Assembly (NCBI GenBank): GCA_008632985.1
Contig: QPGO01000007.1
Location: 620,001-684,000, forward strand
Direction of reading: 5' to 3'
DNA: 64,000 bases
DNA from: Psammoneis japonica
Lineage: Eukaryota
Positions 12,906 through 64,000 of the stretch are shown in pieces. The first letter of the stretch is position 1. Each line of letters begins with the position of its first letter. A program made the translations under genes and the position numbers. The notes below the pieces were generated by a model. The model made no database searches. It saw only the letters and a program-made list of their open reading frames with translations, and was not told the DNA's origin.

Positions 12906-13528
12906 TCTAAAAACACTGTCGCATCCTACAGTACAGTACCGTACTGAGCTCTTGGTGGACGGCACTTCCCAACATGGGATGGGAGAAAGGCAGGGTGAAC
13001 CAAGAATGTGGCGGTTGCCCTTCGTGTTGCGTGTGCCTGTTTGAAAGTTGGATGCAACGGAATAATGCAGTTTTCTTTATGAATATATATTATTGAATGT
13101 GTTATCATACACAAAATATTCGGTACTTTAGTTATCTATTTTGGTAGCCGGTGTCTTCAGTTGGTGGCGGCCATTATTCAGTGAGTCCTGCACACCGTCG
13201 TGTTTAGATCGTCTAGGGCCTAGTCTATCCAATTCGCAGGGAGGGGTGAAAGTGATTGTTTGGCCAGTGTTGACAACTCGCACGACTGTCAGTGGATCAG
13301 CCCCAATCAAGATCCGAAAATTGAGCAAATCCAGCCATGATTTGCTCACTTTGTCAGAGCCAATGATTTCTCTCTTTGTCCTGGGGCGCCTGGAAGAACA
13401 GGCAACGGTTTGGCGGCCATTCATGTCGACAATCATTGCAGTCAGCACCATGGTCCATGGTTGCTCATGCAACTGCAACATTCACTGCAACACAACACTG
13501 TCATGGGTGCAAACACAATCGCTCGTTG

Positions 13529-13804
13529 TGACAGGATTTGAACAGGATTTGGGTGCGCGCGAAATGTCGCGCGCTGTTTGGTTTGCCGCGCACAGTTTTG
13601 TGTGCTTTAGTTCCACGCGTTCGCGCGCGATGCAGTTTGCTTTCGAGCCACAAGGCTCACAAGAATGATGACAGCAGCCCGATTTTATCGACTTGCACGT
13701 CTTTCGGCTCCTGCAACGGTCTCTGAGCGGAGACTCATCTGCCATTTAGACAGCAGTGAGGAGTTGTTGTTTGAATTCTTGCCATTTGCCTTCAATTTCT
13801 GTCA
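13529..13804 (+). repeat. Copia 5' LTR
   Basis: TGACAGG...TTCTGTCA, near-identical to 22074-22349. Confidence 0.9.
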
Positions 13805-15885
13805 GATTGACAGTCTTGCTCATTGTCAACCCATTGAGCAACCGCCATCGTCGTCGTTGATTTACCGACGATGCCACCCTCAATTCTGCGTGGACCTCCG
13901 CATGTGTTCTGCGTACATCGGCAAGTCTGCGCGCATTCAACACCAGGCATCGGCAGGAATTTAACGTCACAGTCAAGTCTCCTCATCGCTGGACATCTGG
14001 ATTGATCACACTGCCTTTTGTCGCTGAAGACATGCATTCAACGGTCATGTCCAAGTCTGTCCTTGATCCTCATCCCTTTGTGTGCCCACTCAACGGTTAA
14101 CGGTCAAGAACCCCACACATTCAAGGATCTTCGTCGCTGAAGACATGCATGTGTGCACATCTTCACGGCCAAGAACTTGTGCCCACTCTTTGGACTGCGG
14201 CTTTGCCACCACTCTACAAGCACACCGAGTCCGTTGCACCTGATCTGCCCCAGACCACTGGTGCTCTGCAGTTCCACTGGGTCCACGAGGACGACTGTGA
14301 GAGCAAGCAGCCGTGATCACAGCCCACGTTGGGGCGAGGGTGTTTTCCCGCGTTTGTTCGTTTGTCCACAGCACCCAATGCCTGCGTCAACTGGCCAGCC
14401 TGATCGGGAAATCCAACCGACACAAAATAAGAATGGCCCAGGGGTCTTGTCCACCTCTGGTCAGCTTGCCTGCAGGGGTTTGCAACCCGCTGCTCCGCTC
14501 GCAAGCAACCCAAAGCGCCGCCAGCTGCGGGTTCGGACGTGCCGGCACAACTCTATGGACCGGACAGGAAGTGTGGCACTTGACAACGAACGGGATGGCA
14601 CAACCCAGCGACTTCTGATTTTAAGATGGTCCAAGATTTCAAGTCAAGTCTAGCTCAAGTCAAGTCTTTTTCAAGCCAAGTTCCAAGTCAAAACTCCGAG
14701 TCAAGATCGCGCTCTAGATTGGTTCCTGTCTTTTGTTTCTGCTGCACCGTCCTCCGTCATGGTTCTCACGTGACAGCAACAAACCAAAAGCTTCAAATGC
14801 ATTCCAGGCACTGTGCTCAATCAAGACGATGACAGCCCTCTTCATTCTGCCCTGTCCATCAATGGGATTGAATCGTGTGAGGAGTTGTTCACGTTCTCAC
14901 CCACCCAAATTGATGCCCTCACTTGCAGAGACGGCGCCAATGCAGTGCCTTTGCCATGGACCCACAGAAACCTCCTGGCAGCTTTGATCAGCTTCTAGTT
15001 TGTCAAAGTTTGCAATGGTGATGATGTGACCAATGAACCCCAGTTGCTCACACCCGACGAATTTCGCAACTGCCGCCTCGGTCCGGACCACTTGACCTCT
15101 CTAGCCACTGGCGCAACACCCTCCGCACCTGTGCCGAGTCCCTTGCCATCCAAACCAGGTGAACCCAGTGCCATTTTGACACCAGCCTTGCACTGTGCCG
15201 CCACTCAGGTGTCCCCTGGAAGTGGTGTCAGTCGCGCCCCGCATGTCTTGACCAACCCGCCTGCAAGCAACCTCGGCCCAGTGCAGGATTGCAGCCCTTG
15301 CACAGGCCCGCACTTCAAGACCAGTTGGGACACTCCACCCATGGCTTCCAAAGCTGCAGTCTTTGCACCCCGCAAACCACGTGCTGCCAACCTCCACATG
15401 TCGACCGCTGTCACCCTTCACAGTCTTCGTTTGGGAAGTGATGGAGATGACAACTTGCTTCTCGCATCTCCTGATGGGGAGCCTCCTTTTCCCGTCATTG
15501 AATCTGTTCACAACAGTTCAACCGGTTCATCAGATGGGGAGTTCAGGACATCCAAGCAGCTTCGTTGTCTTCGGATCCTCCAAGCATCACACCATGAGAC
15601 CAGGCCTCCTGACTGGATGCTCCAAGTCTCGTACCTCAAGACTGGGCCTCCTGATTGGATGCCCCAAGTCTCGCACCTCGAGACTGGGCCTCCTGATTGG
15701 ATGCCTCAAGTCTCGTGCCTCGAGACTGGGCCTCCTGATTGGATGCCCCAAGTGTCGCACCTCGAGTCCAGGTCTCCTGATTGGATGTCCCAAGTCTCGC
15801 ACCTCGAGACCAGGCCTCCTGATTGGATGCGCCTCAAGTCTCGTGCCTCGAGACTGGGCCTCCTGGTTGGATCCCCCAAGTCTCG

Positions 15886-16264
15886 TGCACCATGCTCGAA
15901 GAACGAGTGCAAACGAAAGTGGAACGAAGTTCAAAAGGTGAAAATTGTGAGAATTGTTTCTGCGCAATCATTTTGGGTTTCTCCGAACGGGTTCTCAACA
16001 GCCCAAACCTTTTGCACTGCTCCCACAGGCAAAAGGCCTTTCGGAGAATGTGATCGTGACGACAGATTGTCCGGATACGATTGACATTGACACATGAGAT
16101 GTCAACATCATCGTATGATCGCATTTGCGATTCTCGACATCCGATCACTTCTGTGTGACTGATCTGTGCTTCGTACGAACCCACGATTGACGCACGATTG
16201 AAATGTGCTTTTATTCAACACACAGATGTGCACATGCAACACGTGCATGACAACGCATGTTGCA
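15886..16264 (-). repeat. Gypsy 3' LTR (379 bp)
   Basis: Aligns without gaps to 20695-21073; TG...CA ends. Confidence 0.93.
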
Positions 16265-16290
16265 TTCGCCTCCCCAATTGCACACTGGAG

Positions 16291-19200
16291 TCAGTCGTTA
16301 AACGGCATTGTTCGACGAATGTTGACAGTGTCAACAACGTTGCCGCGTTTGATCTGCACTGTGCCATCAGTGTGTGCCGTTGTCATTGCATGCGGTCCAA
16401 CACAGGGCTGTTCTAATTTTTGCGAGTCTTTCTCGAGCAGTGTCTTTTCTCCCACTCTGTGCGCGCAAGGAGTGCGCCGAGCATTCTCTCGAGCGTCATT
16501 TTTATTTGTGATTTCTTGTTTTCGCTGCTGGATTGGTTTCCAGTCTGCGACATGTTGGACGTTAAATGTCATGTCTCCATTGAAGACTGGTTGTTCTGGT
16601 GCAGCTTGCGCAGTGGTGTGATGCACAGAATGCACCGCAAACGCTGCCGCTGACAGCATTCCAGCGAAAGGATCCTCAGCATCTAGAGGTGCATGTTGCA
16701 AATCAAATGCACGGAGCATGTTCCCCAGCACTTGATGTGCGCGTTCAATGATTGCGTTTGCTTGTGGATTTCGTGCAGTTGTGGGCTTGACTTCAATGCC
16801 ATGATCATCTTGCACCATTTCTCTAAATTGGTGTCCGATGAACTCACTTCCACGGTCACATGTAATTGACAATGGCCAAGGACATCTGCCTGACCATGTT
16901 CGTTCTAGCAGTCCAGCTGCAGCCATGGACTCCTTATTTGGGATTTCCACAACTTCAAACCATCCGGTTGCTGGATCGATCATAGTTAAACATTTCAGGA
17001 CTGGGGTTTTTTTCTTTCCCTTACGACGTATTTTGTATGGCCCAATAAGGTCCACACATAGTCGTTCCCATGGTACGGATTCTGCGCACTTAGGAGGTAA
17101 ATGTCCATATTTCTTGTGTTTCTTTTTGAATTTTTGGCACGTCTCACATATCGACACGTATTTTCGTATGTCTTCACGTAAGGTGGACCACCATAGGTGT
17201 TGTGAGATTGTTTCTTCTGTTCGATTTATGCCAGGGTGAAGAAGGTACGTATGATACCAATCTATCACTGCCTTTTGTAACGTCCTCGGGACGACAATTT
17301 TATCCTTATGACATATGAGCAACCGGTCTCGCTCGCCTCCACGAAAAGTCTTCGTATGAAACGTCTTATTTGACAATTGGGAGAGAATGTCTTTGTCCCG
17401 TTTTTGTTCATAATCAAGAACTTTGTAATTTAACGGAAAGACATTGTCGTAGGATTTTGGTAGGACCTTTTCAGCTAGCTCTTCTGTGCTGAGGGTTTCC
17501 ATAGGTTCTATTTTCTTCATAGTAAGTCGGCTAATCGCATCTGCGACAATATTTGCCTTGCCCTCAAGGTGTGTTATTTTGGGACTGTATTCTTCTATTA
17601 TTAGACGCCAACGCATGACTCTGTCCGTTGTGAAATTTTTGTGTGTGAGATTTTTGTGATCCGTATATATATTTATCTGTTGGCCAAACAGTATATTGCG
17701 GAACTCTTTTAACGTCTCCACTATGGACAATAGTTCTTTTTCTGTTGTAGTGTGACGCGTTTGCGCTCCATTCAGCTTGCGGCTGTAGAAGGCAATTGGT
17801 CGGTTTTTCTGAGTAATAACCGCCCCCAATTGAGAATTACTGGCATCGGCACGTATCTCAAAGGGTGTGTTAAAATTCGGGCACGACAATGGCATGTCTT
17901 TGGAGATGATGCGCTTCACATTTTCGAAGGCTTTTTGTTCTGTTTCGGTCCATTGCCACTTCACTTGGGTAGAAGTGAGTTTGGCTAAAGGAGCTAAAAC
18001 ATGAGATCGTCGAGGCCACATGTCTCGACAGCAGTTGATCACACCGATGAAGCGCCGCAATTCCTTGCGAGTTTCAGGAGTTGCGATCGCGTGAATCGCT
18101 TCTGCTTTTTTTGGAATCGGACTGATGCCCTTGCGGGTGATGTGAAAGCCCAGACAGTCTGCTTCGGGTTTAGCGAAAAAGGACTTCTCGGCGTTGACCT
18201 TCAATCCGGCTTGTTCCAGGCGCAAGAACACCGTTTCAAGCTTCTTGAGGTGGTCTTGAAAACCACCTTTTGCAAGACACAATGTGTCGTCAACACAAGT
18301 TCTGACGAACTCCAGACCTGCCATGAGCTCACTCATGTGCTCTTGGAAAATGTCTGGAGCTCCACAGATTCCCATCGGGAGTCCACAGCACTCACACTTG
18401 CCCCAAGGCATGACGATCGTGCACAAGCGACGTGCATGTGGCGTCAATTCGATGTGACAGTGTCCCATGTTTAAATCCAGGGACATTGCATGCATGAAGC
18501 CTTCGAGCTTCTGCAGCATGTCCTGAACATTGGGTGGAGGAAACGGAGTGCGAATTAACCTCTCATTCAGCTCACAAAAGTCGGGTGAGAACCGAACTCT
18601 ACCATTTTTCTTGGGTTGAACAAAGGTTGGAGCCGCCCATTCAGAACATTTTATTTTTCTCAAGACTTTCAACTTGCATGGTCTTTCAACCTCCTTACAA
18701 GCAGTCGCCTCCAAGGCTTGTGGTGCGGGAAATGGTTTGGCATGATGCGGACTCACGCCCGATTTCAACTTTAAATCCACCGGTTTCCTGGTCCATTTGC
18801 CCAGAGAACCATCAAAAAGGTTTTCAAATCTTTTTAAGAGGAACTTCAGCTGCTTCTGCTCTTCAGGAGTTAGATGAGCAGCTGCTGCGGTCACATTGTT
18901 GAGGTTTGCAGCGTGACAGTCTGAGTCAAGGATCCGATTGACCCTGTCATTAAGACTGATCACTGCATGAGATTCCTCAATGTGATCGGCAATCAACTTA
19001 AAAACATCGGCATCAAAGAGTGTGTCAACATTCTTCACAGGAGTGGTTGCATCTTCCCATTTAATCTCTTCATTCGAGAAGTCCAATGTTGTCCCAAGAC
19101 TTGACATTAAGTCGCGTCCCATGATCACATCACAACAACTCGAAGAAGAAGGGGAGCTGTCAACATGTGCCGTTGTTTCAATCATCTCATGTTTGTCAAA

Positions 19201-19395
19201 TTTGGGCAAGGAGAATTGGATCTTACATCGACTGTCAGTCGTGAAGAGCCCTCCTTTGGTTTCCCAGAGTTTGGTGGCGGATGCTTTTGTTCTGAGTTTC
19301 CGCGTGAATTTGCACAAAATTATGGTTGGCGATGTTCCGCTGTCGAGGAGAACGCGCAGAGGCTTGTTTTTCGCCTTGCCCAATGAAGTGTTCAC
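16291..19395 (-). pseudogene. pol: Gypsy pol (protease, RT, RNase H, integrase); frame open but missense-damaged
   Basis: 'LLDSG', 'LPMG...APDIFQ', 'CVDD' in place of Y(I/L)DD, 'DAS..QLGAV', 'YTDHKNL', 'HPG...C..CQ', 'CDRGSEF' and 'NPQANAIIERAHQ'. Confidence 0.93.
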
Positions 19396-19527
19396 ATGGG
19401 CGACGACTGCTGGACTAGTGTGAATTACTTTGGCCCTTTTTCTGGGCTTCCCAATGTCCAGCAGAGCGCAAGACTCCTCTTGCGGTGCAAGTCATTCCTC
19501 AGAATCACTGCGCGTCATTTTTTCAAA

Positions 19528-20658
19528 CTAACAATTTTCCTTGTCAAGGGTGTCAGAATCACAATCTTTGCTCTTGTGTTTTTTGTCATTGTTCGAAGAA
19601 CTCGCTTTGAGTGTTTTTTGAACTGCTTGGATCGCCATGGCATTCAACTCTTCTTTGCGAGCGGCGTTGTCGTTATCGCGACGAGACCACGTGCGATTGC
19701 CATTTGAACGGCGCCGTTTCGGGTCGGGTTCATAGTTCCCACGGCGTTCTTTCGCAAGTCTTTTGATCGACCAGCACTTGTCCGTGTCATGAGTGGATTT
19801 CTCGCGTGAAATGCACCACTTCTCGGACTGAGATTTTTCGGCACCATGTTGGTGACCATTTTTGGAACCACGTTGGGAACCACGTTGGGAACCACTCTTG
19901 GCTTTTGATGCAGTGCCGCCACTGCCATCAGCCTTGGCATGAATGCCATCAAACATGTCTTCTGCGACCTCTGGGCGCTCCAAGAACTCAACCAACTCGT
20001 CACAGGTGTGTTTCAAAATTTCGAAACCCTGGACGGTCGACTGACGCTGCCACTTTCGAGGTGCAAGGTTGAAGAGGATGTCCTTGAGCTCGTCGTCCTC
20101 GATCTTCTGTTCCTTCCCAAAAGGAGGATAGAACTTGAGGTCTTCGTTGACTTCCTGGACCCAAGCAGCAATTTCGCGCACTTTCATGGACTCCGGCTTC
20201 TTGAGATCACGACGCAAATAACGTTTCTGCACCGAAAGTGCGTTCTTGGGAAACACATGCCTTGTGAGATGTTGCAGGCATTTCTCAAAGCTTCCTTCCG
20301 CAGATTCGTCTTCAAGGTTCGCTGCCGCATTCTCAAAAGCACGTAGAGCGTCTCCTTGGAGTGACATGCGCATGAGACGAAACTTGTCAGATTGCTTCCT
20401 GATGTTCTGGCCCACTGGAAGTTGATCGTAGCTCTTGAGAAATTCGATGAACTTGGGGACACCTTGTTTCTTGTAGCACTCAACATTGATGGTGCAGGTG
20501 CGGCTGTCCTTCTTCTCGGGATGAAAACGTTGCTCCATCTTGAGGTGCTGGCTCGGTTTGAGGCTCTTTGGCTCGGAGTTCGATTCCAGCGGTTGAGGGA
20601 CGATTTTCTCCTGCCTTAACGAAGTTTTGGCGTTGGTTGCATGAGGTGAAAGCTTCAT
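19528..20658 (-). pseudogene. gag: Gypsy gag, in the same frame as pol
   Basis: Lies between the 5' LTR and pol; 'QKRYLRRDLKKP' and a degenerate Zn knuckle 'WCISREKSTHDTDKC'. Confidence 0.85.
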
Positions 20659-20694
20659 CTTGAACTTGTTACCTTCTGTGGTGTGTACACACAA

Positions 20695-21073
20695 TGCACT
20701 GTGCTCGAAGAACGAGTGCAAACGAAAGTAGAACGAAGTTCAAAAGGTGAAAATTATGAGAATTATTTCTGCGCAATCATTTTGGGTTTCTCCGAACGGG
20801 TTCTCAACAGCCTAAACCTTTTGCACTGCTCCCACAGGCAAAGGGCCTTTCGGAGAATATGATCGTGACGACAGATTGTCCGGATACGATTGATGTTGAC
20901 ACACAAGATGTCAACATCATCGTACGATCGCATTTGCGATTCTTGACATCGGATCACTTCTGTGTGACTGATCTGCACTTCGCACGAACCCACGATTGAC
21001 GTACGATTGAAACACACTTTTATTTAACACATGGACATGCATGTGTGACACGTGCATGACAACGCATGTTGCA
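20695..21073 (-). repeat. Gypsy 5' LTR (379 bp)
   Basis: Aligns to 15886-16264. Confidence 0.93.
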
Positions 21074-22073
21074 CTCGTACCTCGAGACTGGGCCTCCTGA
21101 TTGGATGCCTCAAGTCTCGTACATCCAGACTGGGCCTCCTGATCGGATGCCCCAAGTCTCGTGCCTTGAGACCAGGCCTCCCAACTGGACTCTCCACGTC
21201 TCGTGCCTTGAGACCGGGCCTCCCAATTGGATCCTCCACGTTTCACACCTCAGGACTCGGCCTCCGGATTGGATCCCTCAAGTCTTGCGCCACGAGACTC
21301 GGCCTCCTGATTGGATCCCCCAAGTCTCGCACCTCAAGACTTGGCCTCCTGATTGGATCCCCAAAGACTCGTGTCACAAGACTGGCAAGTCCTTTTGGAT
21401 CCCAGAAGTCTTGCAGCACGGGACTGGTTGCCCCAATCAGACATCTGCAGCCTTGCACCACAAGATGTCTTGCTCCAATCCGATCCCCGAAGGCTTGCAC
21501 CTTGAGACTCGTTTCTCCAATTGGATCAGTCTCTCAGGAGATGCAGCTGAGCTTGCAATTGGATTGGTGGAACACAAGACCACCGCTTGTGCCTTTGAAC
21601 TCATGCTTGCTCTGTTCCCCGAGTCGTGCAAACGCCATGCCACCCTGCACGAGCACTGCTCTGTTTTTCCAGCAGCAGCCCAGTGTGGCAACAGTCCCAA
21701 GAACCAACAGACGGCCATCAGTCTTTATGACCTTCGCTCAGGAAGTGAAGGCGATGTCAACTTGTTTGCATTGTCCTGCAATGTTGCCCCGCCGTTCAAC
21801 ATTGTCAACCAGACCAAGCTTTGCTCCTTCCATTGCAAGTGCAGATGTGGAATCCCACAAGATCCCAAGTGTGCCTTGAGCTTTGAAAAGCACAACGGCA
21901 TCTGCAATTGGGGAGACGCTGCTCATTTCAAGATGACCCACTTGGAGAATGCAACGTTGCTCTTGGATCTTGATCCTTTCTTGTCTCCTCATGTTTTGGT
22001 GCTTTGACTCCAAAGTTCTTCAGTCAATCCGAAGTCGAATCTGTTTTTGTGACTCCTCAAGCAAACTGGGGAG

Positions 22074-22349
22074 TGACAGGATTTGAACAGGATTTGGGTG
22101 CGCGCAAAATGTCGCGTGCTGTTTGGTTTGCCGCGCACAGTTTTGTGTGCTTTAGTTCCGCGCGTTCGCGTGCGATGTAGTTTGCTTTCAAGCCACAAGG
22201 CTCACAAGAATGACAACAGCAGCCCGATTGTGCCGACTTGCACGTCTTTCGGCTCCTGCAACGGTCTCTGAGCAGAGACTCATCTGCTGTTTAGACAGCA
22301 GCAAGGAGTCATTGTTTGAATTCTTGCCATTTGCCTTCAATTTCTGTCA
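22074..22349 (+). repeat. Copia 3' LTR
   Basis: Direct repeat of 13529-13804, preceded by GGGGAG. Confidence 0.9.
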
Positions 22350-22350
22350 G

Positions 22351-22524
22351 AGACATGCAAGTCAGTGTAATCGGGCTGCTGTCATTGTTCTTGTGAGCCT
22401 TGTGGCTCGAAAGCAAACTACATCACGTGCGAACGTGCGGAACCAAAGCACACAAAACTGTGTGCGGCAAACTAAACAGCGTGCGACATTTCGCGCGCAC
22501 CTAAATCCTGTTCAAATCCTGTCA
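22351..22524 (-). repeat. Inverted copy of the first ~174 bp of the Copia LTR
   Basis: Ends ...AAATCCTGTTCAAATCCTGTCA, the reverse complement of the LTR start. Confidence 0.9.
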
Positions 22525-24576: not shown

Positions 24577-25533
24577 ATGTCCTTTGTCGAAGACGACAGT
24601 GGTGATTCTTTTGAGTGCGACGCTCGCCATGATGGTGTAGACCTTGCTTGCGAGCATGCAATGCAAGAGCAAGCGTTTTGAGAAAGCAACGACGACACCG
24701 TCCATTCCCCTGAGCCTCGGGCTCAAGCCCCCACGGCTGTGTCTCCACGCTTGGTGAAGGACATGGATGAATCGCTTCTTTGCGTGGACCTTGAATGTGA
24801 GCACGACATGCAGGAAGAACACTGCAGTTGGATTGAAAATGGACAGGGTCATTTCTTGCGTCGGACGTGGCTCCGAGTTGCCGAAAGAGAAGTTGTCCTT
24901 CGCAACGTGGGCAGCCACGAAGGCCTCGGCGTCCACACACACATGCGAAACATCAATGATGAGTCCCACGCCCATGACCGACACCCTTTTGTGGCGGTCA
25001 TCCACCTGCTCAACAATGCACAAGAAAATTCTACGGTGCACATTTCCGTGCCAATTGTGACAGACATGCACTTTCTGGATGAGTTGTGTCATTGCGCGAA
25101 ACCGGTGTTTTTGGGGGGCAGGGGACTGGTGGTGCGGGTCATTGTGGGACCTCAGCGATGGGTGGCAAACGAGTTTCAACGATTTGTGGATGGAGATTTT
25201 GCCGGTGCTGCTGGCAACAGCAACGATCGAGAAATGGCTGTTGGAAGGCTCCAGCTTCGCAGATTCGGGACAGATCAGGACGCGAAACGATCTTCCCATT
25301 CTCACACAAATGCAATGTGCATGACGGCTGGTGCCTTGATTGGTTCCCACAACTGCACGCATGCATCAAAGCATCATCACCGTGAGGATGGTCTCATGAC
25401 GCCTCCCGGCTTTGAGGCGGACAGTTTGCGTCAACGACTCGAGGACGTCTGGAATGCAGGAGAATCGTTTGCAGTTTGCAGCAGGCACGTGCGTCCCCCG
25501 CCTGGATGCGTTCCTTCTCCAGAAGCGAAATGA
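24577..25533 (+). pseudogene. PLD-superfamily (HKD nuclease-like) gene remnant, one in-frame TGA at 24679
   Basis: 'STVHISVP..TD..FLDEL...LVVRVI' and 'SHTNAM...ALIGSHNCT..S...REDGL' resemble HxK...GSxN; no Tyr in the frame. Confidence 0.55.
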
Positions 25534-53270: not shown

Positions 53271-53916
53271 GGAATCTTACGCGACTCAAATCATTGTGCG
53301 CAACGGATTGTTTTCGAATCGCTGATGCAATTCTTCAAAAACAGATTTGAATAAAAATTAATTCTTTTTTTTTACAAGATCCGGTGTGCAAATTTTCAAA
53401 AACTCGATGCTGTTGACAATCAAAAACTTATGCGTAGTATGCGGTCATGGAGAGAAACATCACTGTAAGTGACCAATTACAGTACAGTGCGTACTATGCA
53501 TGATATGTTCAGTCGCAGCAATGTACTGTAATAACGCTATTCTACTGACTTTTTTATGCGCATGAGTGAATACTTTCATGATTTGCAACGCTTCAAAACA
53601 ATATAAAATCGGATAGTAACTGGTCCAACGGGTATGTTGTATTAATGCATATAAATATATGAAACGTCGTCTTGGCGATCGAACTTCCCTTCCAAATTTT
53701 CCCTGTGTACATTCCTACACGATTTTTCTACTGTCACGCATTCCACATACGTCGGCATCATCCACCTCCAGCGTCCTGCAACCAAAATGAACACAAAAAC
53801 ATCAAGAGCTGGTACCGGTAGATGGTTGATGGCAACATAAAATTTGCCTTGTTCTATCGATCGGAGATACTTTCATCGGAAGTCATAGTGTAGTCGCTGA
53901 GGACTACCCCAATCAC

Positions 53917-56224: not shown

Positions 56225-58132
56225 CTAAAGCAGCGCTTCAAGATCGAGTTCCACACATGATGCGGGGTACTGAATATCAAAATTAGACAACACCTTGGGA
56301 TGAAGGATACCAAAAGTCCCAATCTGAACACGTTTACCATTCTCGTTTGACAAAAGAATGGATGCTGCTCGTCCAGGAAAGTAAGTTCCAGCCACAGCAT
56401 CGCCTCCATCCAACTCAGCAATCGTGTACAACCATCCTTCCCGACTGACACGGAACTTTTCTTCCAGAGGATTGGAAGAGTTCTTGGCATATTCATCTTC
56501 GGGCGCCACTTCACAAAGCGTCATGATGCGATCGACAAGACCGTGGATGATTTCAAATCCCGACTTTGGACCCGCGTACACGGCGCATAGCCGACGGCTA
56601 TTCTTGGCGCCCACCACGGTTTCCGTAACGACACACTCATTGTCCACCAACACGACATCACTAATCTCAAATAACTTAAAGCCCGCCGTGAAGCTGGCGG
56701 ACTTATTGTGCTGCAACGTCTTGAGCAAACCCGGAAGCAAGGTGGTCCGCACCACTTCGTATTCGACATTGGCGGGATTGGACAAACGGACAGCAGCCGT
56801 AATGGGTCGTCCAAGCGATGTAAAGTTGTCTCGGGTAGAACACAGGCCGTGAGTCAACACTTCGGTGTATCCGGCACGTCCAATCTCGTCTCGCAGCAAG
56901 TCACCCAGCAGATTGAGCGACTGTTCACCGCCGACTGTGCAGGTTTTCGGAACGCGTTTGACAATGTTGTTGTATCCATAAGCAATGCCAATGTCCTCGG
57001 CAATGTCGACAGGATGCAATATATCACTTCGTGTCGGAGGCACAGTGACTTCGAGGACCGTGTCATTTTCGTGCAACTCGGCAGGACCCAACTGCACCTT
57101 GTTGCACAAGGTCTTCATCTCCTGTGCAGATATGTTGATTCCAATCAAACTGTTGCAGAATTCGACAGAAGCCTGTTCTCTCCTGGTGCTCATTTCGGGA
57201 GTCACGTAGGAATTGACAATGCTGCCGTCGCTGTCTTGGTAGTTGACCGTGACTGGCTCCACCGAAAAGGGCTGGGCGCAGTATTCGCTAAACATGCTCA
57301 CCACAGTATCGAGAACAATGTTTGCTTTTGTCAGGTCGGTGGCTGTACACTCGATAAAGACATTTTTCGTGTCGAGCGTAATCTTGGACTTGTCACCGTT
57401 GATAATGGGAGGCAAACTCAAAACGGCTTCATCGGAATCCAGAACGACTGGATAAACGGGTGAATCCTTTATAATGCCCACATAGGGTTTCAAATGCTTA
57501 CACGATGGGTCTGTTTCATAGAATTCCAAAAGTTCACCCCCAGAAAACTCTCTATCATTGGGAACCAGTGGGACAAAGTTAATGTCCGACGGAGCACGCG
57601 CATCGTAGAAAAAGGGCCCAGACACGGAATCCAAGTCGTGCGTCCCAATCGCGACAAGCGTTCGTTGTCGACACAAGTTACGATGAAGCTGATCCTGCAA
57701 ATCAATGAAACTGTCATAACGTTCTTGCGTAAAGATAATATCACGAAGAACCGCACACACCACAAAGGGACGGATCTTATCGGTGTTACTCTTGCGGACC
57801 GTCATGGTGAATTCACCCTGATCCAACACCTTGTAAACAGGAGCCTCCGTGTCTCCCAGAAAAATCTTGAGAGAACGACTGAGACCTTCCACACACAAGA
57901 GATCATATCGATTCGCCGGGACATCAATCTTGTAAATAACAGACGACGAAAGTGCCGCGACTTCTTTTTTCGAAAGCTTGACCGTTTCGGATTTGAGCGC
58001 TTCTTCTCGTTCCGATGTGATTTCATCCAGCTCCACGCCAAATTCAAAACACAACTCATCAAACTCTTCGTCCGTATAAGTCCGACCCAAATGGGCAAAG
58101 AGGACGTCTTTTTCAACCGCCAAGGTCGGCAT
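56225..58132 (-). CDS. FARSB: Cytosolic phenylalanyl-tRNA synthetase beta subunit
   Basis: 'FDELCFEFGVELDE', 'IDVPANRYDLLC', 'AIGTHDLD', 'PPTRSDILHPVDIAEDIGIAYGYNN' and 'VRTTLLPGLLKT'. Confidence 0.96.
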   Translation of the reverse strand: MPTLAVEKDVLFAHLGRTYTDEEFDELCFEFGVELDEITSEREEALKSETVKLSKKEVAALSSSVIYKIDVPANRYDLLCVEGLSRSLKIFLGDTEAPVYKVLDQGEFTMTVRKSNTDKIRPFVVCAVLRDIIFTQERYDSFIDLQDQLHRNLCRQRTLVAIGTHDLDSVSGPFFYDARAPSDINFVPLVPNDREFSGGELLEFYETDPSCKHLKPYVGIIKDSPVYPVVLDSDEAVLSLPPIINGDKSKITLDTKNVFIECTATDLTKANIVLDTVVSMFSEYCAQPFSVEPVTVNYQDSDGSIVNSYVTPEMSTRREQASVEFCNSLIGINISAQEMKTLCNKVQLGPAELHENDTVLEVTVPPTRSDILHPVDIAEDIGIAYGYNNIVKRVPKTCTVGGEQSLNLLGDLLRDEIGRAGYTEVLTHGLCSTRDNFTSLGRPITAAVRLSNPANVEYEVVRTTLLPGLLKTLQHNKSASFTAGFKLFEISDVVLVDNECVVTETVVGAKNSRRLCAVYAGPKSGFEIIHGLVDRIMTLCEVAPEDEYAKNSSNPLEEKFRVSREGWLYTIAELDGGDAVAGTYFPGRAASILLSNENGKRVQIGTFGILHPKVLSNFDIQYPASCVELDLEALL

Positions 58133-58981
58133 TGTCTCTAGCAATAAGGGCTAGGGCTAAGCCTTGCAATAAAGCAGATCGGATTAATGTTGCTGTTTAC
58201 TGTCGTGCTTCAACGTGAAACGTGAAGCATGCCATACGCGGTGCTCGGAGGTCGGAGGGAGTTTCTCTCCACTACAATTTCTACGTTCATGTTACGTAGC
58301 TCCGAACCGCAAATTCCGCGCGGCTTTGTGAAAAGCGAGGGAAACCCGGATGCGGAAATACTTGAAGCGACAGGTTGTGGTCCTAATCTCCTCTACTAGC
58401 TACAGGTAGTAGCTAGCTACTAGAGTAGAGCTCTATGATAGTAGCTAATACTGTAGTAACAGCACTACTCTCTAGAGAGTAGCTCGATCACGAATTGAGA
58501 GTCTATCTCCACATCGCAAGCCGCGGCGCCATCGCGCAAAAGCGATAGGAAAACACTCCCAACAAGCGCTGCAATGAAAACAGTAGATGCGTTCCAATTT
58601 TCAGGCAACGATTATCAGCATTACGTTGTGTAGTTTGCGATACCAAAGTTCGCAGGTATCCAGGAAAAGTACGACATATACTTCACGAATTGTATTTATT
58701 ACATTTAGGTTATGAAAAGGTCAGAGACACAGCGTATGCATAGCGTCTACATTGTATTTGCGCGTGGAGCTCAGTTATGAGAGCACGCTCCAGGAACAGT
58801 TCTATAGGTGAAACCCGACTTGTGTATCCTGGACACAGAAAATTCCATGGGGTGAAAAATTAGGGAGGAGAAAGTCTGTTGCATAAAAACTCTTTGGAGA
58901 GACACCACAAAGTCTCTTGCAACAAATCTGCAGCAACTAGCTCCAGAGTCCTTCTCTGGGGCTTTGCGTAGCCTGTAAGAG

Positions 58982-59854
58982 CTACGCGGAACTTGAGCCC
59001 TTGCCCTTGCCCTTGCTGCTTGAGCCAGATGAACTGCCCTTGCCCTTGCCGCTTGAGCCAGATGAACTGCCCTTGCCCTTGCTGCTTGAGCCAGATGAAC
59101 TGCCCTTGCCCTTGCCACTAGAACCGGAGGCGCTGCCCTTGCCCTTGCTGCTTGAGCCGGAGGAGCTCCCCTTGCCCTTGCTGCTTGAGCCGGAGGAGCT
59201 GCCCTTGCCCTTCCCGCTTGAGCCGGAGGCGCTGCCCTTGCCCTTGCCGCTTGAGCCGGAGGCGCTGCCCTTGCCCTTGCCGCTTGAGCCGGAGGCGCTG
59301 CCCTTGCCCTTGCTACTAGAGCCGGAGGCGCTGCCCTTGCCCTTGCTACTAGAACCAGAGGCGCTGCCCTTGCCCTTGCTGCTTGAGCCAGAGGCGCTGC
59401 CTTTGCCCTTGCTACTTGAGCCGGAGGAGCCGCCCTTGCTCTTGCTACTGGATCCTCCCTTGCCCTTGCTCGAGCCAGAGGAGCCGCCCTTGCTCTTACT
59501 GCCTGAGCCAGAGGAGCTGCCCTTACTCTTGCTGCCGGATCCGCCTTTACTGCCGGATCCACCTTTGCTCTTGCTGCCGGATCCGCCCTTGCCCTTGCTG
59601 CCGGATCCGCCTTTGCTGCCCGATCCACCTGTGCCCTTGCTGCCGGATCCACCTTTGCCCTTGCTGCCGGATCCGCCCTTGCTCTTGCTGCCGGATCCGC
59701 CCTTGCTCTTGCTGCTGCTGCTCGTTGGCGGCGTCGGCGCTGGAGGTGTTGGCGCTGGAGGTGTCGGCGCTGGAGGTGTTGGCGCAGGAGGTGTCGGCGA
59801 AGGAGGTGTCGGCGAAGGAGGAGGAACATCACTGCTGCTGCTTGAACTTGATGA

Positions 59855-59897
<43 letters not shown>

Positions 59898-61260
59898 GAG
59901 CTTGATGAACTGCTGCTGCTGCTGCTTGAGCTTGAGGAACTGCTGCTGCTGCTGCTCGATGGCGTGGGGGGCAGTCTCCACTGCTGCTGGACGACGACGA
60001 CGACGAACTACTGTGATCCCAGTCGTCACTCGAGGAACGGCTTCGGCTCGAGCTTTTGCTGGAGTACGTTGGGGGCATTGGCGTCGGGGGCGTCGGCATA
60101 GGCGGTGTTGGCGTCGGAGGTGTTGGCACAGGCGGTGTTGGCGTCGGAGGTGTTGGCACAGGCGGTGTCGGTCCTCCCTTACCCTTGCTGCTTGAACTCG
60201 ATCCGCCCTTGCCCTTGCTGCTTGAACTCGAACCGCCCTTGCCCTTGCTGCTCGAAGTCGGGGGATGAGGCTTCGGAGGTGTTGGCGTCGGAGGTGTTGG
60301 CGTCGGAGGTGTCGGTCCTCCCTTACCCTTGCTGCTTGAACTCGATCCGCCCTTGCCCTTGCTGCTCGAAGTCGGGGGATGAGGCTTCGGAGGTGTTGGC
60401 GTCGGAGGTGTTGGCACAGGCGGTGTCGGTCCTCCCTTGCCCTTGCTGCTCGAGCTCGATCCGCCCTTGCCCTTGCTGCTCGAACTCGGTCCGGGATGAG
60501 GCTTCGGCGGCGGAGGAGGNNNNNNNNNNNNNNNNNNNNNNNNNNNNNNNNNNNNNNNNNNNNNNNNNNNNNNNNNNNNNNNNNNNNNNNNNNNNNNNNN
60601 NNNNNNNNNNNNNNNNNNNNNNNNNNNNNNNNNNNNNNNNNNNNNNNNNNNNNNNNNNNNNNNNNNNNNNNNNNNNNNNNNNNNNNNNNNNNNNNNNNNN
60701 NNNNNNNNNNNNNNNNNNNNNNNNNNNNNNNNNNNNNNNNNNNNNNNNNNNNNNNNNNNNNNNNNNNNNNNNNNNNNNNNNNNNNNNNNNNNNNNNNNNN
60801 NNNNNNNNGGCGGCGGCGGAGGAGGAGGAGGAGGCGGCGGCGGAGGAGGAGGAGGAGGCGGCGGCGGAGGTGGCGGCTTTGGTGTCGGCGGCGGCTTAAT
60901 TGGCGCCGGAGGTGGTGGCGGCGGGGGAGTTGGTGCCGGAGTTGGAGGCGGTGTTGGTTCGCTCGTCACAACCGGTGGCGGGGTCGTAGGTGACGGGGTT
61001 GGGAACTTGAATATGACCGTAGAAGACTTTGTGGGAGCACATGTTGTGTCATCGATAAGCAAATCACGATCGGCTCCTCGCAAGTATCCGGTCGATGAAG
61101 TAAGGCGCGAGAAAACGGACGACACAAACGACTTGACTAATCCCGTATTTCCGTGGGCGTTCGCCGTGTCGCTGTTGTCATCACGCAGTGTTGGCAGCGC
61201 GTGAGCAGAATCAGTTGCAAAGGCAGCTAGCACAAACGCGAGAGGGACAGTGACTCTCAT
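58982..61260 (-). CDS. Secreted Pro/Thr- and Ser/Lys/Gly-rich repetitive protein (silaffin-like candidate); spans a gap and an apparent frameshift at 59966-59971
   Basis: Signal peptide MRVTVPLAFVLAAFATDSAHA, 'YLRGADRDL', PTP repeats and SSSSKGKGG repeats; one extra C restores a poly-Ser/SGSKGKGG frame ending in TAG at 58982. Confidence 0.75.
60520..60808. other. Assembly gap (N run) inside a poly-Pro repeat
   Basis: Run of n characters. Confidence 0.99.
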
Positions 61261-61939
61261 TGTTGCTATCCTTGTCTGACGCAAAGAAGATTGCGACCTG
61301 TTCACTTCTTGGTTATGTTCGAGAGGCAAACTTGGTGTTGTTTGAGTTACAAATCGCAAATTATGAGAGATGTTTGCGTTGACGACGATTGCCGATTCTT
61401 TTTGTGAGACGTGTAGAGTTTTTGGCAGTCTTGGCGAGAAAATCACAAGGCGCCAAAAACTCTCATGTCGTATATTAATAACCTTTAACGTTGTAGATGT
61501 AAATAAATGTATATACGAAACGCCACCGCTGCATGGCGCTCCACGATGTATCGCATTTTGAAGCTTCGACGCTTTTGTTTCGTATTCAGCGTTTAATGTT
61601 AATATTTCTTCAGATATGTCTTGATGTCACGCCGCACCTCGAAAGGTATCTTTTACGTAAAATTTGTATGGAGCTGTACAGAGCAAAAAAGACTCGAAAG
61701 ATCCCGCTCTAGCCACGCCATTCGTGTGTGCGATTCGTGTGCTGGAACTGAACTCATGGGGGAGTCGAATTCTAGCGCTGCAGACGTACCATCGACAAGA
61801 CAATACCAAGAACATGTAGAATTGTACTCTGTCCGGCAGGACTAAAATTATTCTTAAAATATGATAGTAAAACGCATGCCGCCATGATTGTCCGTTCCGT
61901 TGAAAATTCATCGTACAAACTGCTGCAAAACCTAAAGTG

Positions 61940-64000
61940 CATGTGTGTGGGGGGAGGAGGCGGGAAAGAGGAGGGGCGCAGTGGATGGTGGACGATGGAA
62001 AAAAGAGAGGGACGCGCGAGACAGCACAGGATGAAAGTGAGCGAAGATTTAGATTGAAGTTGTGGCAGCCAGACATCACATCGTGAATGTGAAAGAATGT
62101 GAAAAAGCAAAGTTGTTGGGCACAGACAATTGAGATCTTCCAAGTGTTGCTGATCTTTGCAAGGTCATTTTCCTTGGCAGCTGGCAGGGGTTGTTGGCCC
62201 AAGCTCAGGAGTTGAAAGCAGTGCGCAACTTTGAGCAACAGGTGCGGCACAACATTTTGTTGGCAGTGTCATTTGGTTCTTTGACAAGCCGGTGCAGTGG
62301 CGCACAAGGCACCACTCCGCTGGCATCATTTGAGGTTGTGTGCACACCATTTGAGAGGGCAAGAAGTCATCTCAAGTCTGCTGCCAGAAAGAACCGCTGG
62401 CTTGTTCACAGGATGAATTTTGTTCAGCACCCTCTGTGTGCACCCAGAGCTCAGCTTGAGACACTTTCCATTGTGACATCCCAAATGCTTTGATGTTTCC
62501 AGAGGTGAAACAGGGTTTGTGTGCCGGCGCTTGTTGATGTCAATGAAAAACAATGTGTTGACTTGCGCCAGTCGTCACACACCAACAATCTTTTTCATCA
62601 GACAAATGAGCACAACGAAAGATCAGGATCCATGCTGCACAAAAGTTGCTGCTTCACGTCGCAGCAGGTCTGCACAATCCCTTCGTTGAGCTTCTTGCTT
62701 GAGGGAAGTTTTGTTGGTTTGTCAAGCAACTGAGCACATTGCTTGAGCAAGATTCTGCAACAAGTCATTCTCAGGCAAAAATGACTTTCAACTCAGACAT
62801 CACAACAGGGATTCACTTGAAGAGCAGCACAAACACTTGACAAAGATTCTGCATGCTGCAGGCCACTCTCATGTCAAAATGACTTTAAGCTCTGGCATCA
62901 CGACAAGCACTCGCTTTTAAAGTGCAACAACAAGTTCATGAAGCCACATCGGTCCCACCCACAAAGCTTTCATGGAACAACTGACACAAGGGATTTGCTT
63001 GGGAGATCAGGGCACCTTCCAAAGGTTCTTTCCCTGAACAACCAACATGATGCCATTCCAATCAGTCAGCTCTCACTTCGTCCGACGGTTGAGTGTCGAC
63101 AATCGGTCGTTTGTCGGATTGTCGCCAAAAAAAATTTCACATTCACAGAAAAATCGGCACACCTCTGTCAGGGTCACCACACATTGTCCTCCATTGCTCG
63201 CACATCACATCTGTTGTCAACTCATCACGTGTGTGACATTGCCGCCCACAACGGGAACAACCTCATCAAACCACTTTCCAGAATTGTTCAGTTGTCAACG
63301 TCAGAATCAACAGCACCCAAAGTGGTGCTGCAATGCATTTGGCCAGTTTGCAAATGCCTGAACACCCCATTGATGCAAACAACAAAAGTGACGTCAAATT
63401 AATGCTGCAAGAAACAGTCAAAAATCCCCAAAATGACAACATGCCTCGAAAATGAGATCATGAAGGTGTGCTTTTCTCTTCACCGAATGAATCACCATCA
63501 ACCATTTGCAACGAACTAAGAGCATCAAAAAAAGTTGCTGCAGCTTTTTTGTGTGATGGTCAAAAAACCCCATTTTTCATTTGGGGTTGGGCACTCATGA
63601 ACCTGCCACCACTCCGGTGTGAAGAGATGCCATGAGATTTCAGCCCGACTCCGGGTCCCTCCCCGGCGTTGACCTGTCACACGGCTGACCCACAGAAGTG
63701 CAGCCAACAGACCAAGTGTCGGGTGCAACACTTGTGAACAAAAAAACAAATCTTGACACTGTGTGTCCTTGAGTCCAGTCAAAGCCAACACAAAAATCAT
63801 TCTCCTGTGCTGCAGTTCCCAGCACAATTTCCACAAAAACCTCGATGTGGACACTTTTTGGACACTCCTGGACACAAGGTTGTCATGTCCGTGATCTGGA
63901 TTTTCAAGGATGACATTTGCTTGCAGAACCATCTGGGCATTTTGCTGAAAACATGCAAAAAGTGCACACAACAATCTCAAAGATCCTTTTGAGCCATCAA
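61940..64000. other. TpA-depleted block F (unidentified element, continues beyond the window)
   Basis: Abrupt loss of TA after ~61935; survivors mainly TTAA/CTAA. Confidence 0.75.

Follow-up and report, generated by a model that had tools for sequence, protein, structure and literature searches.

Probable TpA-to-TpG/CpA hypermutation of inserted DNA in the diatom Psammoneis japonica, of the kind reported from Bigelowiella natans

In a 64,000-nt stretch of the genome of the diatom Psammoneis japonica (contig QPGO01000007.1, positions 620,001 to 684,000; hereafter the window, whose own coordinates are used throughout), long segments have lost nearly all TpA dinucleotides, and this depletion is confirmed as real. 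Integrated mobile or foreign DNA in this diatom probably undergoes a localised hypermutation of TpA to TpG or CpA, of the kind reported from the chlorarachniophyte Bigelowiella natans. Such a process would act after integration by changing A:T to G:C at TpA, each strand being mutated independently; it would be close to saturation in inserted DNA and spare the adjoining genes. It would also be selective for sequence, erasing ATAT, ATAC and GTAT and leaving TTAA nearly immune, and would convert TpA much faster than methylated CpG decays, with CpG decay forming a second, later layer in the older segments.

Summed over seven depleted segments (30,640 bp), 160 TpA are counted against about 1185 expected from the rate in host segments (0.0387 per base), the edges of the segments being set by the TpA positions themselves. 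A reading made earlier from the letters alone (the sequence-only reading) had counted no TpA in 28021-28620, and the recount also gives zero, with three CpG; the longest TpA-free runs are 1715 bp (27661-29376) and 1572 bp (36496-38068). That reading had also described the interleaved host genes as normal in TpA, which agrees with an observed/expected ratio (O/E) of about 0.4-0.7 in the host gene segments (0.56 overall). Transitions between depleted and host DNA are sharp, within tens of bases. In depleted DNA, a clear fall is confined to TA and CG among the 16 dinucleotides; the increase is greatest, by a wide margin, for CA and TG (up to twice the expectation), and AA, AT and TT are nearly unchanged. 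A 289-N scaffold gap is present in the window.

The first depleted segment (13227-16823; 25 TpA against 139 expected, TpA O/E 0.12, CpG O/E 0.75) includes a 280-bp repeat of high copy number (13528-13806) and a 42-nt minisatellite (15489-15888), together with the left LTR of a Ty3/gypsy element and the 3′ end of its pol gene. It is separated by a less mutated island (16824-17995, minus strand; 67 TpA, O/E 0.73), lying inside the intact pol ORF from RNase H to integrase, from the second segment (17996-23665; 51 TpA against 219, O/E 0.14, CpG O/E 0.79), which takes in the reverse transcriptase portion of pol, together with gag and the right LTR, as well as minisatellite and two 280-bp repeats in a foldback arrangement (22073-22525). 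Copy number was read from the Logan contigs of sequencing run X1 (31-letter words, depth about 60, longest contig 315 kb): 13335-14668 (summed depth 72,000-123,000) and 22006-22672 are high-copy repeats. Between the second and third segments lies an AT-rich, TA-normal island (23666-24483; 57 TpA, O/E 0.88), which is multi-copy (summed depth about 3200-3400 vs about 60 for single-copy DNA) and in which terminal repeats and a target duplication were looked for and not found. The third segment (24484-31558; 30 TpA against 274, O/E 0.06) retains CpG up to about 26400 and lacks it past that point; tblastn with gypsy proteins finds a degenerate gypsy remnant in it (28301-30819, plus strand, E 1e-4 to 1e-6). 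The fourth (33844-38067; 10 TpA against 163, TpA O/E 0.04, CpG O/E 0.18) carries a gypsy gag-like remnant found in the same way (36000-36822, plus strand) and a weak DNA likeness to 28761-28904. No Pfam family was found in the fifth (43002-48370; 30 TpA against 208, O/E 0.09, CpG gone from about 45300), none above noise in the sixth, depleted in TpA and CpG (50523-53277; 10 against 107, O/E 0.05), and none in the seventh (62051-64000; 4 against 75, O/E 0.03), which continues past the window end. Two host genes served as controls, both on the minus strand. A flavin amine oxidase gene (31899-33533; Pfam Amino_oxidase, E 2e-43) is flanked by two depleted segments and has normal TpA (O/E 0.42-0.66); a Phe-tRNA synthetase beta gene (56225-58150, Pfam) has best matches at 80-81% identity, the named ones being Seminavis, Mayamaea, Amphora, Nitzschia and Pseudo-nitzschia, which puts the source of the DNA with the raphid pennate diatoms.

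The sequence-only reading had spoken of six transposon blocks. The near-total loss of TpA in them stands, while their number becomes seven segments with two TA-normal islands, and their transposon identity is borne out for the gypsy element and the two degenerate remnants and not for the rest. Likewise, its statement that retroelements, TIR elements and cargo-like genes are all hit is upheld for the retroelement; no transposase domain was found, and the sole possible cargo candidate was a sub-threshold PLD-like match. The description as repeat-targeted is not borne out: block 24674-31343 lies at single-copy depth in X1 and the multi-copy island keeps normal TpA. For three of the seven segments, in which there is no recognisable mobile-element feature, mobile DNA is what we infer.

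CpG is nearly gone (O/E 0.03-0.2) from 26500-31400, 34200-37800, 45300-48300 and 50700-53000, a loss that was absent from the sequence-only reading. This is ordinary methylated-cytosine decay, a slower and separate layer, and deamination of 5-methylcytosine at CpG does account for roughly one half of the excess of TG and CA in these four segments. It cannot account for the TpA loss, because about 11 kb within 13400-26400 have lost TpA and kept CpG at an O/E of 0.78. The earlier argument that 5-methylcytosine deamination creates TpA and so offers no explanation is thus right in that TpA loss stays unexplained by it and wrong as to the product, as CpG deamination makes TpG and CpA.

The Ty3/gypsy LTR retroelement (15886-21077, minus strand; Pfam RVT_1, RNase H, Integrase_H2C2 and rve) has LTRs at 15886-16268 and 20695-21077 that are 91.4% identical; pol occupies an ORF at 16294-19491, and a gag-like ORF spans 19531-20739. 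The element sits within the 42-nt minisatellite, with repeat units on both flanks that resume at 21074-21526, and its homologues reach up to 56% identity. Pol has no tyrosine among its residues 1-497, and CVDD stands in place of the YxDD box. When polarised against 60 homologous gypsy proteins, with a column taken as conserved at no less than 80% Tyr, the 13 conserved Tyr columns of the TA-poor N-terminal part of pol hold nine Cys, three His, one Phe and no Tyr; in the island 16824-17995, 6 of 11 strongly conserved Tyr columns keep Tyr. In alignment A1, all 15 nearly invariant Tyr columns are broken, by the window's copy alone. The family is not natively TA-free, because 78 related loci from metagenomes have a TpA O/E of 0.54-1.02; none of the 78 carries the TA-erasing signature, the retained loci being the best-scoring ones, which favours intact copies. 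Among the best 150 representative homologues of the mutated half of pol, three, from other assemblies, wholly lack Tyr, having Cys or His at the conserved Tyr columns and ACIDD or ACLDD replacing AYxDD.

The LTRs of one retroelement are identical at insertion. In this pair, 33 differences are found over 383 aligned positions, 32 of them transitions: 20 make up ten CA/TG doubles of adjacent positions, 8 are TA vs TG or CA, 2 are CpG vs TpG and 3 are other, so that 28 of 33 fall at TA/TG/CA sites. Common to both LTRs are 23 of 25 CpG but only 3 TpA. As rough estimates, some 80% of the ancestral TpA sites were mutated in each LTR, at a rate that exceeds that of other positions about 100-fold and that of CpG some tens of times. 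In the 42-nt minisatellite, one and the same position reads TA, TG or CA depending on the unit, three copies of the 280-bp repeat vary in the same way at matching positions, and an inverted-repeat arm within the fifth segment has CA at three sites where the arm outside has TA. Single-step codon inference on 370 conserved columns gave, at TpA, A>G 20 times and T>C 14 times; elsewhere A>G 4, T>C 0 and G>A 6; and in addition 4 CpG transitions, 20 transversions, 33 multi-step and 6 ambiguous cases. Both strands were mutated, as A>G and T>C both occur at TpA, and editing of the sense RNA is thereby ruled out; TG and CA outcomes are randomly interleaved (runs test, 12 regions, abs(z) of 2.2 or less). 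Judged from these comparisons and the segment edges, the change runs from TA to TG or CA, after insertion, on both strands and at the DNA level, and is confined to inserted or mobile DNA. Five independent comparisons bear out the earlier statement that TA has turned into TG or CA at every site with a deducible ancestor, and the proposed post-insertion mutator of DNA is supported by LTR discordance, repeat units, Tyr columns and codon inference.

Selectivity for the tetranucleotide is strong: TTAA largely survives, and ATAT, ATAC and GTAT are almost gone. Among surviving TpA in depleted segments, TTAA makes up 26.6% and ATAT plus ATAC 3.2%; in host DNA the two shares are 4.5% and 24.5%, and among the 78 related gypsy elements they are 7.1% and 20.8% (chi-square p = 7e-31). 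This extended motif, with TTAA spared and ATAT/ATAC lost, is new here.

If a modified base were misread, a true TA could be called TG or CA, and were the modification symmetric, with misreading on either strand, the result would be TG or CA throughout, without any TA; the platforms of the assembly and of X1 are not on record. Such a sequencing or assembly artefact is nevertheless very improbable, since the independent-looking X1 reads match the TA-free sequence at single-copy depth. In X1, the TA-free stretch 26532-32000 stands in one contig, joined to the host gene, with 20 differences, no alternative TA form and a word depth of about 62 vs about 57 for host DNA; X1 may come from the assembly's own culture. 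X1 does not simply repeat the assembly, because it differs from the window at 4 host positions. The 289-N gap is moreover typical of short-read scaffolding, the three Tyr-free homologues lie in unrelated assemblies, and in B. natans lines sequenced with Illumina the signature appeared de novo (10.64898/2026.01.13.699255). ADAR-like A-to-I editing of retroelement transcripts before reverse transcription, so that copies insert already mutated, would suit the retroelement as the best-documented target in the window and the A>G change with U/T at -1, which is the ADAR-type neighbour preference (10.64898/2026.01.13.699255). This idea is even harder to credit and is largely refuted: the LTRs of one insertion are discordant at 28 TA-type positions, so the hits post-date insertion, T>C occurs on the sense strand beside A>G, mutation extends to the minisatellite and the 280-bp repeat, which lie outside the retroelement, and in B. 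natans it is insertions of DNA viruses that mutate in real time (10.64898/2026.01.13.699255). Least probable of all is that the elements avoided TA before entry, by escape from a TA-reading nuclease or by stop-codon avoidance. For the gypsy element this is refuted by the LTR discordance, the Tyr columns and the 78 relatives with ordinary TpA content; the discordance of LTRs and repeat units points to independent hits, catalytic and conserved Tyr residues were destroyed, and the island within the same ORF retains TA.

As to the agent of the post-integration hypermutation, a chromatin- or RNA-guided adenine deaminase acting on DNA is the foremost candidate, at somewhat less than an even chance. 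Adenine at T-A steps would be deaminated to hypoxanthine and fixed as G at the next replication, a step suggested by the type of transition and by analogy. Tyr codons would thereby turn into Cys or His and the reverse transcriptase catalytic box would be destroyed; TAA and TAG stops would vanish, so that reading frames would be open yet encode dead proteins. The biological role would presumably be the disabling of invaders. Several observations sit awkwardly with the hypermutation reading: the 1.17-kb island 16824-17995 within one ORF is only lightly mutated, the multi-copy island 23666-24483 is wholly unmutated, three of seven segments have no recognisable mobile-element feature, and the signature is missing from the 78 metagenome loci, with the bias towards intact copies given above. 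Since A>G on one strand is T>C on the other, thymine-side chemistry fits the change equally well: the thymine of TpA in silent chromatin would be modified, for example by oxidation to 5-hydroxymethyl- or 5-formyl-uracil by a TET/JBP-type dioxygenase, and mispair with G to give T>C, with the same palindromic TA to CA/TG outcome and random strand choice. In dinoflagellates, 5-hydroxymethyluracil is enriched at TpA and TpC, and 5-formyluracil has been reported to mispair with G. The B. natans authors prefer adenine deamination (10.64898/2026.01.13.699255), and we regard the thymine route as unlikely, if worth keeping in mind. Slightly less likely again is an untargeted by-product of silent chromatin, arising from error-prone repair or replication (e.g., by a Y-family polymerase) or from unrepaired damage at TpA. 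The effect is limited to non-genic segments, and the large hypermutable region of B. natans is transcriptionally silent (10.64898/2026.01.13.699255), as such a by-product would have it. Against it stand the roughly 100-fold bias over neighbouring positions within one LTR, edges sharp to tens of bases, the untouched multi-copy island between depleted DNA, the tetranucleotide selectivity, and the fact that only some B. natans lines mutate, which suggests regulation (10.64898/2026.01.13.699255). The Pol-eta-type WA hotspot proposed in the sequence-only reading is disfavoured in particular, as AA/TT and AT are not depleted.

Among known systems, methylated-CpG decay explains the CpG loss and part of the TG/CA gain in four segments but cannot remove TpA, and the LTR pair holds 28 TA-type vs 2 CpG-type positions. 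ADAR and TadA/ADAT2-type deaminases have, to our knowledge, RNA as their natural substrates. They share the A>G outcome and prefer U/T directly 5′ of the edited A (10.64898/2026.01.13.699255); activity on DNA is reported, according to the same preprint, only for amphioxus and trypanosome ADAT2, whereas in the diatom the substrate would be integrated DNA, mutated on both strands. RIP of ascomycetes is likewise a post-integration, DNA-level, transition-only process that disables mobile elements and leaves a dinucleotide-specific footprint with sharp edges (PMC2621366, PMC7296669). However, RIP changes C:G to T:A, mainly CpA to TpA, and so enriches TpA and creates stops, whereas in the diatom TpA is erased and stops are removed; the earlier phrase "opposite to RIP" is apt as to direction. 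In diatoms, the RID-like DNMT4 is described as being of unknown function, and loss of DNMT5a leads to global methylation loss and transposable-element overexpression (PMC9998398).

The closest counterpart is B. natans, for which AT to GC hypermutation restricted to TpA was described in integrated DNA of NCLDVs and virophages (Mettrop et al., 10.64898/2026.01.13.699255). Of 231 mutations that arose in two silent viral insertions of its mutation-accumulation lines, 230 were A>G or T>C, every one of these at TpA; the rate was about 6e-7 per site per generation, some 1000-fold above that of the genome. Over the long term the footprint is a loss of TpA and a gain of CpA and TpG, and its clusters are enriched for reverse-transcriptase and DDE-transposase genes. 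Diatoms are not mentioned in the available text of that preprint, and no description of TA-erasing hypermutation in diatoms was found in the literature searched; the sequence-only suggestion of novelty hence stands for diatoms and not for the process as such. As far as the preprint text goes, both cases share nearly exclusive A>G and T>C changes at TpA, giving TpG or CpA by strand, a restriction to foreign insertions (genes elsewhere being normal) and the same footprint. They differ in that B. natans is a rhizarian and the diatom a stramenopile, on another supergroup branch; in that viral insertions are concerned there, and an LTR retroelement and other repeats here; and in that TpA O/E is 0.03-0.14 here, near saturation, vs 0.45 for the NCLDV region. 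Furthermore, the process was measured in mutation-accumulation lines there and is deduced from sequence comparison here, the preference sparing TTAA is not described in the main text of the preprint, and a CpG-decay layer is superimposed here. By its signature, the diatom process would be of the same kind, and thus a further case of a process that was first described from an unrelated alga in 2026.

In seven segments of the window, TpA has nearly disappeared. A profile computed from sliding windows and 200-bp bins, with edges set to within tens of bases by the TpA positions, delimits segments 1 (13227-16823), 2 (17996-23665), 3 (24484-31558), 4 (33844-38067), 5 (43002-48370), 6 (50523-53277) and 7 (62051-64000), and leaves two TA-normal islands within the depleted DNA (16824-17995 and 23666-24483). 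Combined, the segments measure 30,640 bp and contain 160 TpA, while about 1185 are expected at the rate of the host segments (0.0387 per base). The observed/expected ratio (O/E) of TpA is 0.03-0.14 in the segments against 0.56 in host DNA, the edges are sharp and the longest run devoid of TpA reaches 1715 bp. The sequence-only reading had reported a collapse of TpA, its complete absence from 28021-28620 and a normal TpA content in the neighbouring host genes, all of which are confirmed by these counts. A clear fall is limited to TA and CG among the 16 dinucleotides; AA, AT and TT are almost unchanged and CA and TG rise by far the most (O/E 1.45-1.86 in the depleted segments). Where TpA and CpG are both gone, the O/E of TG+CA reaches up to 2.0, the value expected for a complete conversion of CG and TA into TG or CA.

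The window is nuclear diatom DNA. Its host genes, as identified by Pfam, encode a helicase, a kinesin (11439-13076), a flavin amine oxidase (31899-33533) and Phe-tRNA synthetase beta (56225-58150). The top matches of the latter are 80-81% identical and the named ones are raphid pennate diatoms (Seminavis, Mayamaea, Amphora, Nitzschia and Pseudo-nitzschia). An open frame of 951 codons on the reverse strand (58771-61626), GC-rich (up to 0.66), is composed of 33-, 15-, 30- and 114-nt tandem repeats (repeats at 58929-60493) and is broken by the sole assembly gap of the window (289 N, 60520-60808).

The depleted DNA includes a Ty3/gypsy LTR retroelement on the reverse strand (15886-21077), with reverse transcriptase (RT), RNase H and integrase domains, a gag-like ORF and 383-bp LTRs. 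The element sits inside a 42-nt minisatellite, which flanks it on both sides, and is surrounded by three copies of a 280-bp repeat (13528-13806, 22073-22351 and 22351-22525), two of which form a foldback. In the sequencing run X1, the summed depth is about 72,000-124,000 for repeats and 7,000-16,000 for the gypsy element, against about 60 for single-copy DNA. The 280-bp repeat, with a summed depth of about 120,000, therefore represents a MITE-like or foldback family of very high abundance, the copies of which diverge at TA-type and CpG-type sites alike. Degenerate gypsy remnants were found by tblastn at 28301-30819 and 36000-36822, with gypsy proteins as the only queries. The depleted segments contain 247 stop-free ORFs of at least 70 aa; a Pfam scan of 221 of them found no transposon domain, and its sub-threshold matches to PLDc_2 (24682-25530), Fer4_10 and Ni_insertion were treated as noise or unproven. 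The PLDc_2 match (E 3e-5, 24.2 bits for a cut-off of 27) lies in an ORF of 283 codons on the forward strand, located in single-copy, TA-free, CpG-rich DNA, which could be a hypermutated mobile-element gene or a chance match. Hence, the only DNA with an established mobile identity is that of the gypsy element, the two degenerate remnants and the high-copy repeats. The Pfam scan lends no support to the terms "TIR elements" and "cargo-like genes", as used in the sequence-only reading, and segments 5-7 are putative mobile DNA.

At the time of insertion, the two LTRs of an element have the same sequence, and LTR pairs provide an internal clock showing that the process acts after insertion. The gypsy LTRs differ at 33 of 383 positions, 32 of which are transitions. 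Twenty of these differences form ten adjacent CA-versus-TG doubles and eight oppose TA to TG or CA, which places 28 of the 33 at TA/TG/CA sites; the remainder consists of two CpG-versus-TpG differences and three other changes. A CA/TG double implies that an ancestral TA (or CG) changed independently in each LTR, and because CpG is retained in the LTRs (23 of 25 are shared, but merely 3 TpA), the ancestor was TA. A rough estimate based on these few sites (8 singles and 10 doubles) is that about 80% of the TpA sites of each LTR have changed since insertion, at a rate in the order of 100 times that of other positions and tens of times that of CpG. Similarly, units of the minisatellite carry TA, TG or CA at one and the same position, which is also true of the 280-bp repeat in its three copies, and an inverted-repeat pair lying across a segment edge has TA in the outer arm and CA in the inner arm at three sites.

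The pol ORF bears the same imprint. Its residues 1-497 contain no Tyr and the YxDD box reads CVDD. In the TA-poor N-terminal part, the 13 columns with at least 80% Tyr among 60 homologues hold nine Cys, three His, one Phe and no Tyr, and all 15 nearly invariant Tyr columns of alignment A1 are broken by the window copy alone. Single-step codon changes were polarised over 370 conserved columns with a protein outgroup, 33 multi-step and 6 ambiguous cases being kept apart. At TpA, 20 A>G and 14 T>C changes were obtained; away from TpA, there were 4 A>G, no T>C and 6 G>A, plus 4 CpG transitions and 20 transversions. Overall, 38 AT>GC transitions compare with 10 GC>AT transitions (CpG included) and 20 transversions, and 34 of the 38 AT>GC changes are located at TpA. 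The excess of A>G at TpA anticipated from the sequence is therefore present, and the LTR pair, the repeat units, the Tyr columns and the codon changes all uphold the proposed direction, from TA to TG or CA at the DNA level and after insertion.

The gypsy family could have been TA-free from the outset, a possibility that the sequence-only reading had itself raised. This does not hold, because 78 related metagenome loci are ordinary, with a TpA O/E of 0.54-1.02. TA depletion occurs in none of these 78 loci; since selection favours intact copies, the set is uninformative on the frequency of the process. Likewise, the best 120 homologues of the full pol protein include no Tyr-poor sequence. Among the best 150 representative homologues of the mutated pol half, three gypsy pol fragments from other assemblies (ENA, Logan), P0250, P0358 and P0368, are devoid of Tyr (0%), with 6.6-9.6% Cys+His. 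Their conserved Tyr columns are occupied by Cys or His, and the RT box of P0250 and P0358 reads ACIDD or ACLDD. By their residues, these fragments look like products of the same hypermutation in other genomes.

An artefact of the assembly was considered by comparing the window with Logan contigs of run X1 (longest contig 315 kb, single-copy word depth of about 57-63). One contig aligns over 26532-32000 (20 differences, 6 gaps) and connects TA-free DNA to a host gene at equal depth. X1 and the window disagree at four single-copy host positions close to the kinesin gene (12255, 13004 and 13216-13217), hence X1 represents another haplotype or strain and not an identical copy of the assembly. The confirmation in independent reads suggested by the sequence-only reading was consequently obtained in part: X1 carries the TA-free sequence and provides good, not fully independent, support, as its sample may be the assembly's own. 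Two other runs, X2 and X3, contain little of the window. No RNA run was among those listed as containing it, which is neutral with regard to its transcription.

CpG is nearly absent as well (O/E 0.15 overall) from 26500-31400, 34200-37800, 45300-48300 and 50700-53000, while about 11 kb (13400-26400) is TpA-poor yet retains CpG (O/E 0.78). Deamination of 5mC at CpG thus fails as sole cause, because TpA is lost in DNA that keeps CpG, and the earlier remark that 5mC deamination creates TpA was wrong for CpG. CpG decay is a second layer, found in four segments only. According to PMC9998398, diatom transposable elements are methylated in a DNMT5a-dependent manner and the function of the diatom RID-like DNMT4 is stated as unknown. 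Several of the metagenome gypsy loci (L034, L039, L053, L008, L074 and others) have a CpG O/E of 0.01-0.2 with ordinary TpA (0.54-0.90); the decay of CpG can therefore be separated from the loss of TpA, and the hosts differ in the process shown.

The process has a sequence preference beyond TpA itself. Of 158 surviving TpA, counted within slightly narrower segment bounds, 26.6% are in TTAA, 21.5% in CTAA/TTAG and 3.2% in ATAT plus ATAC/GTAT. The corresponding shares of TTAA and ATAT+ATAC are 4.5% and 24.5% in host DNA (chi-square for context, p = 7e-31); for the 78 related elements, they are 7.1% and 20.8%. Back-mutation from the abundant TG and CA was rejected as the source of this bias (p = 1e-21). 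Expressed as relative survival, TTAA stands at about 0.8, CTAA at about 0.4 and ATAT and ATAC at about 0.02. Noisy 4-mer excesses, comparing the -2 with the +1 base, give a weak hint that an A after the target A is protective. TG and CA outcomes are randomly interleaved along every segment, with no strand-coordinated clustering (runs test in 12 regions, |z| <= 2.2), and long single-strand processivity is therefore absent.

The process was initially described as repeat-targeted, a term that the depth data do not establish. Mutation affects the gypsy and 280-bp repeat families, both present in many copies, but 24674-31343, which has single-copy depth at a likeness of at least 80%, is heavily mutated and the multi-copy island 23666-24483 is unmutated, hence copy number does not predict mutation. 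This island is AT-rich (GC 0.44, TpA O/E 0.88), has a summed X1 depth of about 3200-3400 (about 60 for single-copy DNA) and lacks terminal repeats or a target-site duplication; it may be a young insertion later than the hypermutation. The other island (16824-17995, 1.17 kb) lies inside the uninterrupted 1066-aa gypsy pol ORF and is lightly mutated, with sharp edges and nearly TA-free flanks. Of its 11 columns with at least 80% Tyr among the 60 homologues, six retain Tyr and five have lost it. Our guess is that a copy with fewer mutations supplied this stretch by gene conversion or recombination.

These results support a DNA-level, post-insertion mutator which is specific for TpA, confined to inserted DNA and the reverse of RIP. 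ADAR-type editing of retroelement RNA would also yield A>G; however, T>C accompanies A>G at TpA on the sense strand, and because both strands changed, editing of the sense RNA is excluded. Furthermore, the LTR divergence postdates insertion and repeats outside retroelements are changed too. Error-prone synthesis of the Pol-eta type, an option of the sequence-only reading, has a WA hotspot in which AA and TA are both mutated. It is disfavoured here, since only TA is lost while the O/E of AA goes from 1.14 in host DNA to 1.20-1.24 in the depleted segments. As for the chemistry, adenine deamination in DNA is the leading, if tentative, candidate. A modification on the thymine side of TpA would be an unlikely route, and a passive bias linked to chromatin a slightly less likely one.

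It is conceivable, although we would not call it probable, that diatoms possess a natural guided editor of dsDNA, which targets newly integrated or silenced mobile DNA, rewrites the A (or the T) of T-A and belongs to an old SAR-wide defence. Such an editor would erase ATAT and ATAC and spare TTAA, and would act at about 100 times the background, well before the decay of methylated CpG. Its signature, and possibly its origin, would be common to the chlorarachniophyte process; as a SAR-wide mutational defence, it would be the mirror image of fungal RIP.

To our knowledge, textbooks describe mutational genome defence only in fungi (RIP) and for vertebrate APOBEC, both C-to-T. The first report of a TpA-restricted A:T-to-G:C system dates from 2026 and concerns one rhizarian alga. 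The diatom footprint adds a second, ecologically dominant lineage in which genetic tools already exist, and ordinary retrotransposons are affected besides viral insertions. The tetranucleotide motif is a constraint that any candidate enzyme must reproduce. Hypermutated elements lose all tyrosine and keep long open reading frames, because the TAA and TAG stops disappear, hence gene callers will predict dead proteins. In addition, transposon ages based on LTR divergence will be greatly overestimated and hypermutated copies will escape homology-based repeat annotation. An adenine deaminase that works on chromosomal DNA, should this be the agent, would also attract interest as a naturally occurring adenine base editor.

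The closest known system is the hypermutation of Bigelowiella natans (10.64898/2026.01.13.699255). According to this preprint, the mutation rate of two integrated viral regions in mutation-accumulation lines is about 6e-7 per site per generation, exceeding that of the remaining genome about 1000-fold. There, 230 of 231 mutations are A>G or T>C, all at TpA, and mutation is raised in some lines only; transcription is silent in the target region. The B. natans genome contains TpA-poor clusters rich in CpA and TpG, and 324 low-TpA genes enriched in reverse transcriptase and DDE transposase. The agent proposed in the preprint is an adenine deaminase of the ADAT2 type with activity on DNA. Diatoms are not mentioned there, and the main text gives no wider motif. 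Full-text literature searches, whose reach did not extend to subscription journals, likewise returned no diatom description. The idea of an undescribed process therefore stands for diatoms only, as the same signature is present in B. natans (10.64898/2026.01.13.699255).

The process in the window is of the same kind as the hypermutation of B. natans, in a new lineage. In both, AT-to-GC transitions are restricted to TpA, yield TpG or CpA depending on the strand and are confined to integrated DNA, with adjoining genes spared. While rates in B. natans were measured de novo in lines, the window offers only the estimate from the LTR pair, in the order of 100-fold. The diatom case is marked by retrotransposons as targets, a near-saturated footprint, an overlying CpG decay and a newly seen tetranucleotide preference. 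In contrast, fungal RIP changes C:G to T:A, mainly CpA to TpA, enriching TpA and depleting CpA and TpG, and acts only on duplicated sequence above a threshold of length and identity. With TpA lost and CA and TG gained, the window runs in the reverse direction, which rejects RIP as its cause and bears out the view of a process opposite to RIP.
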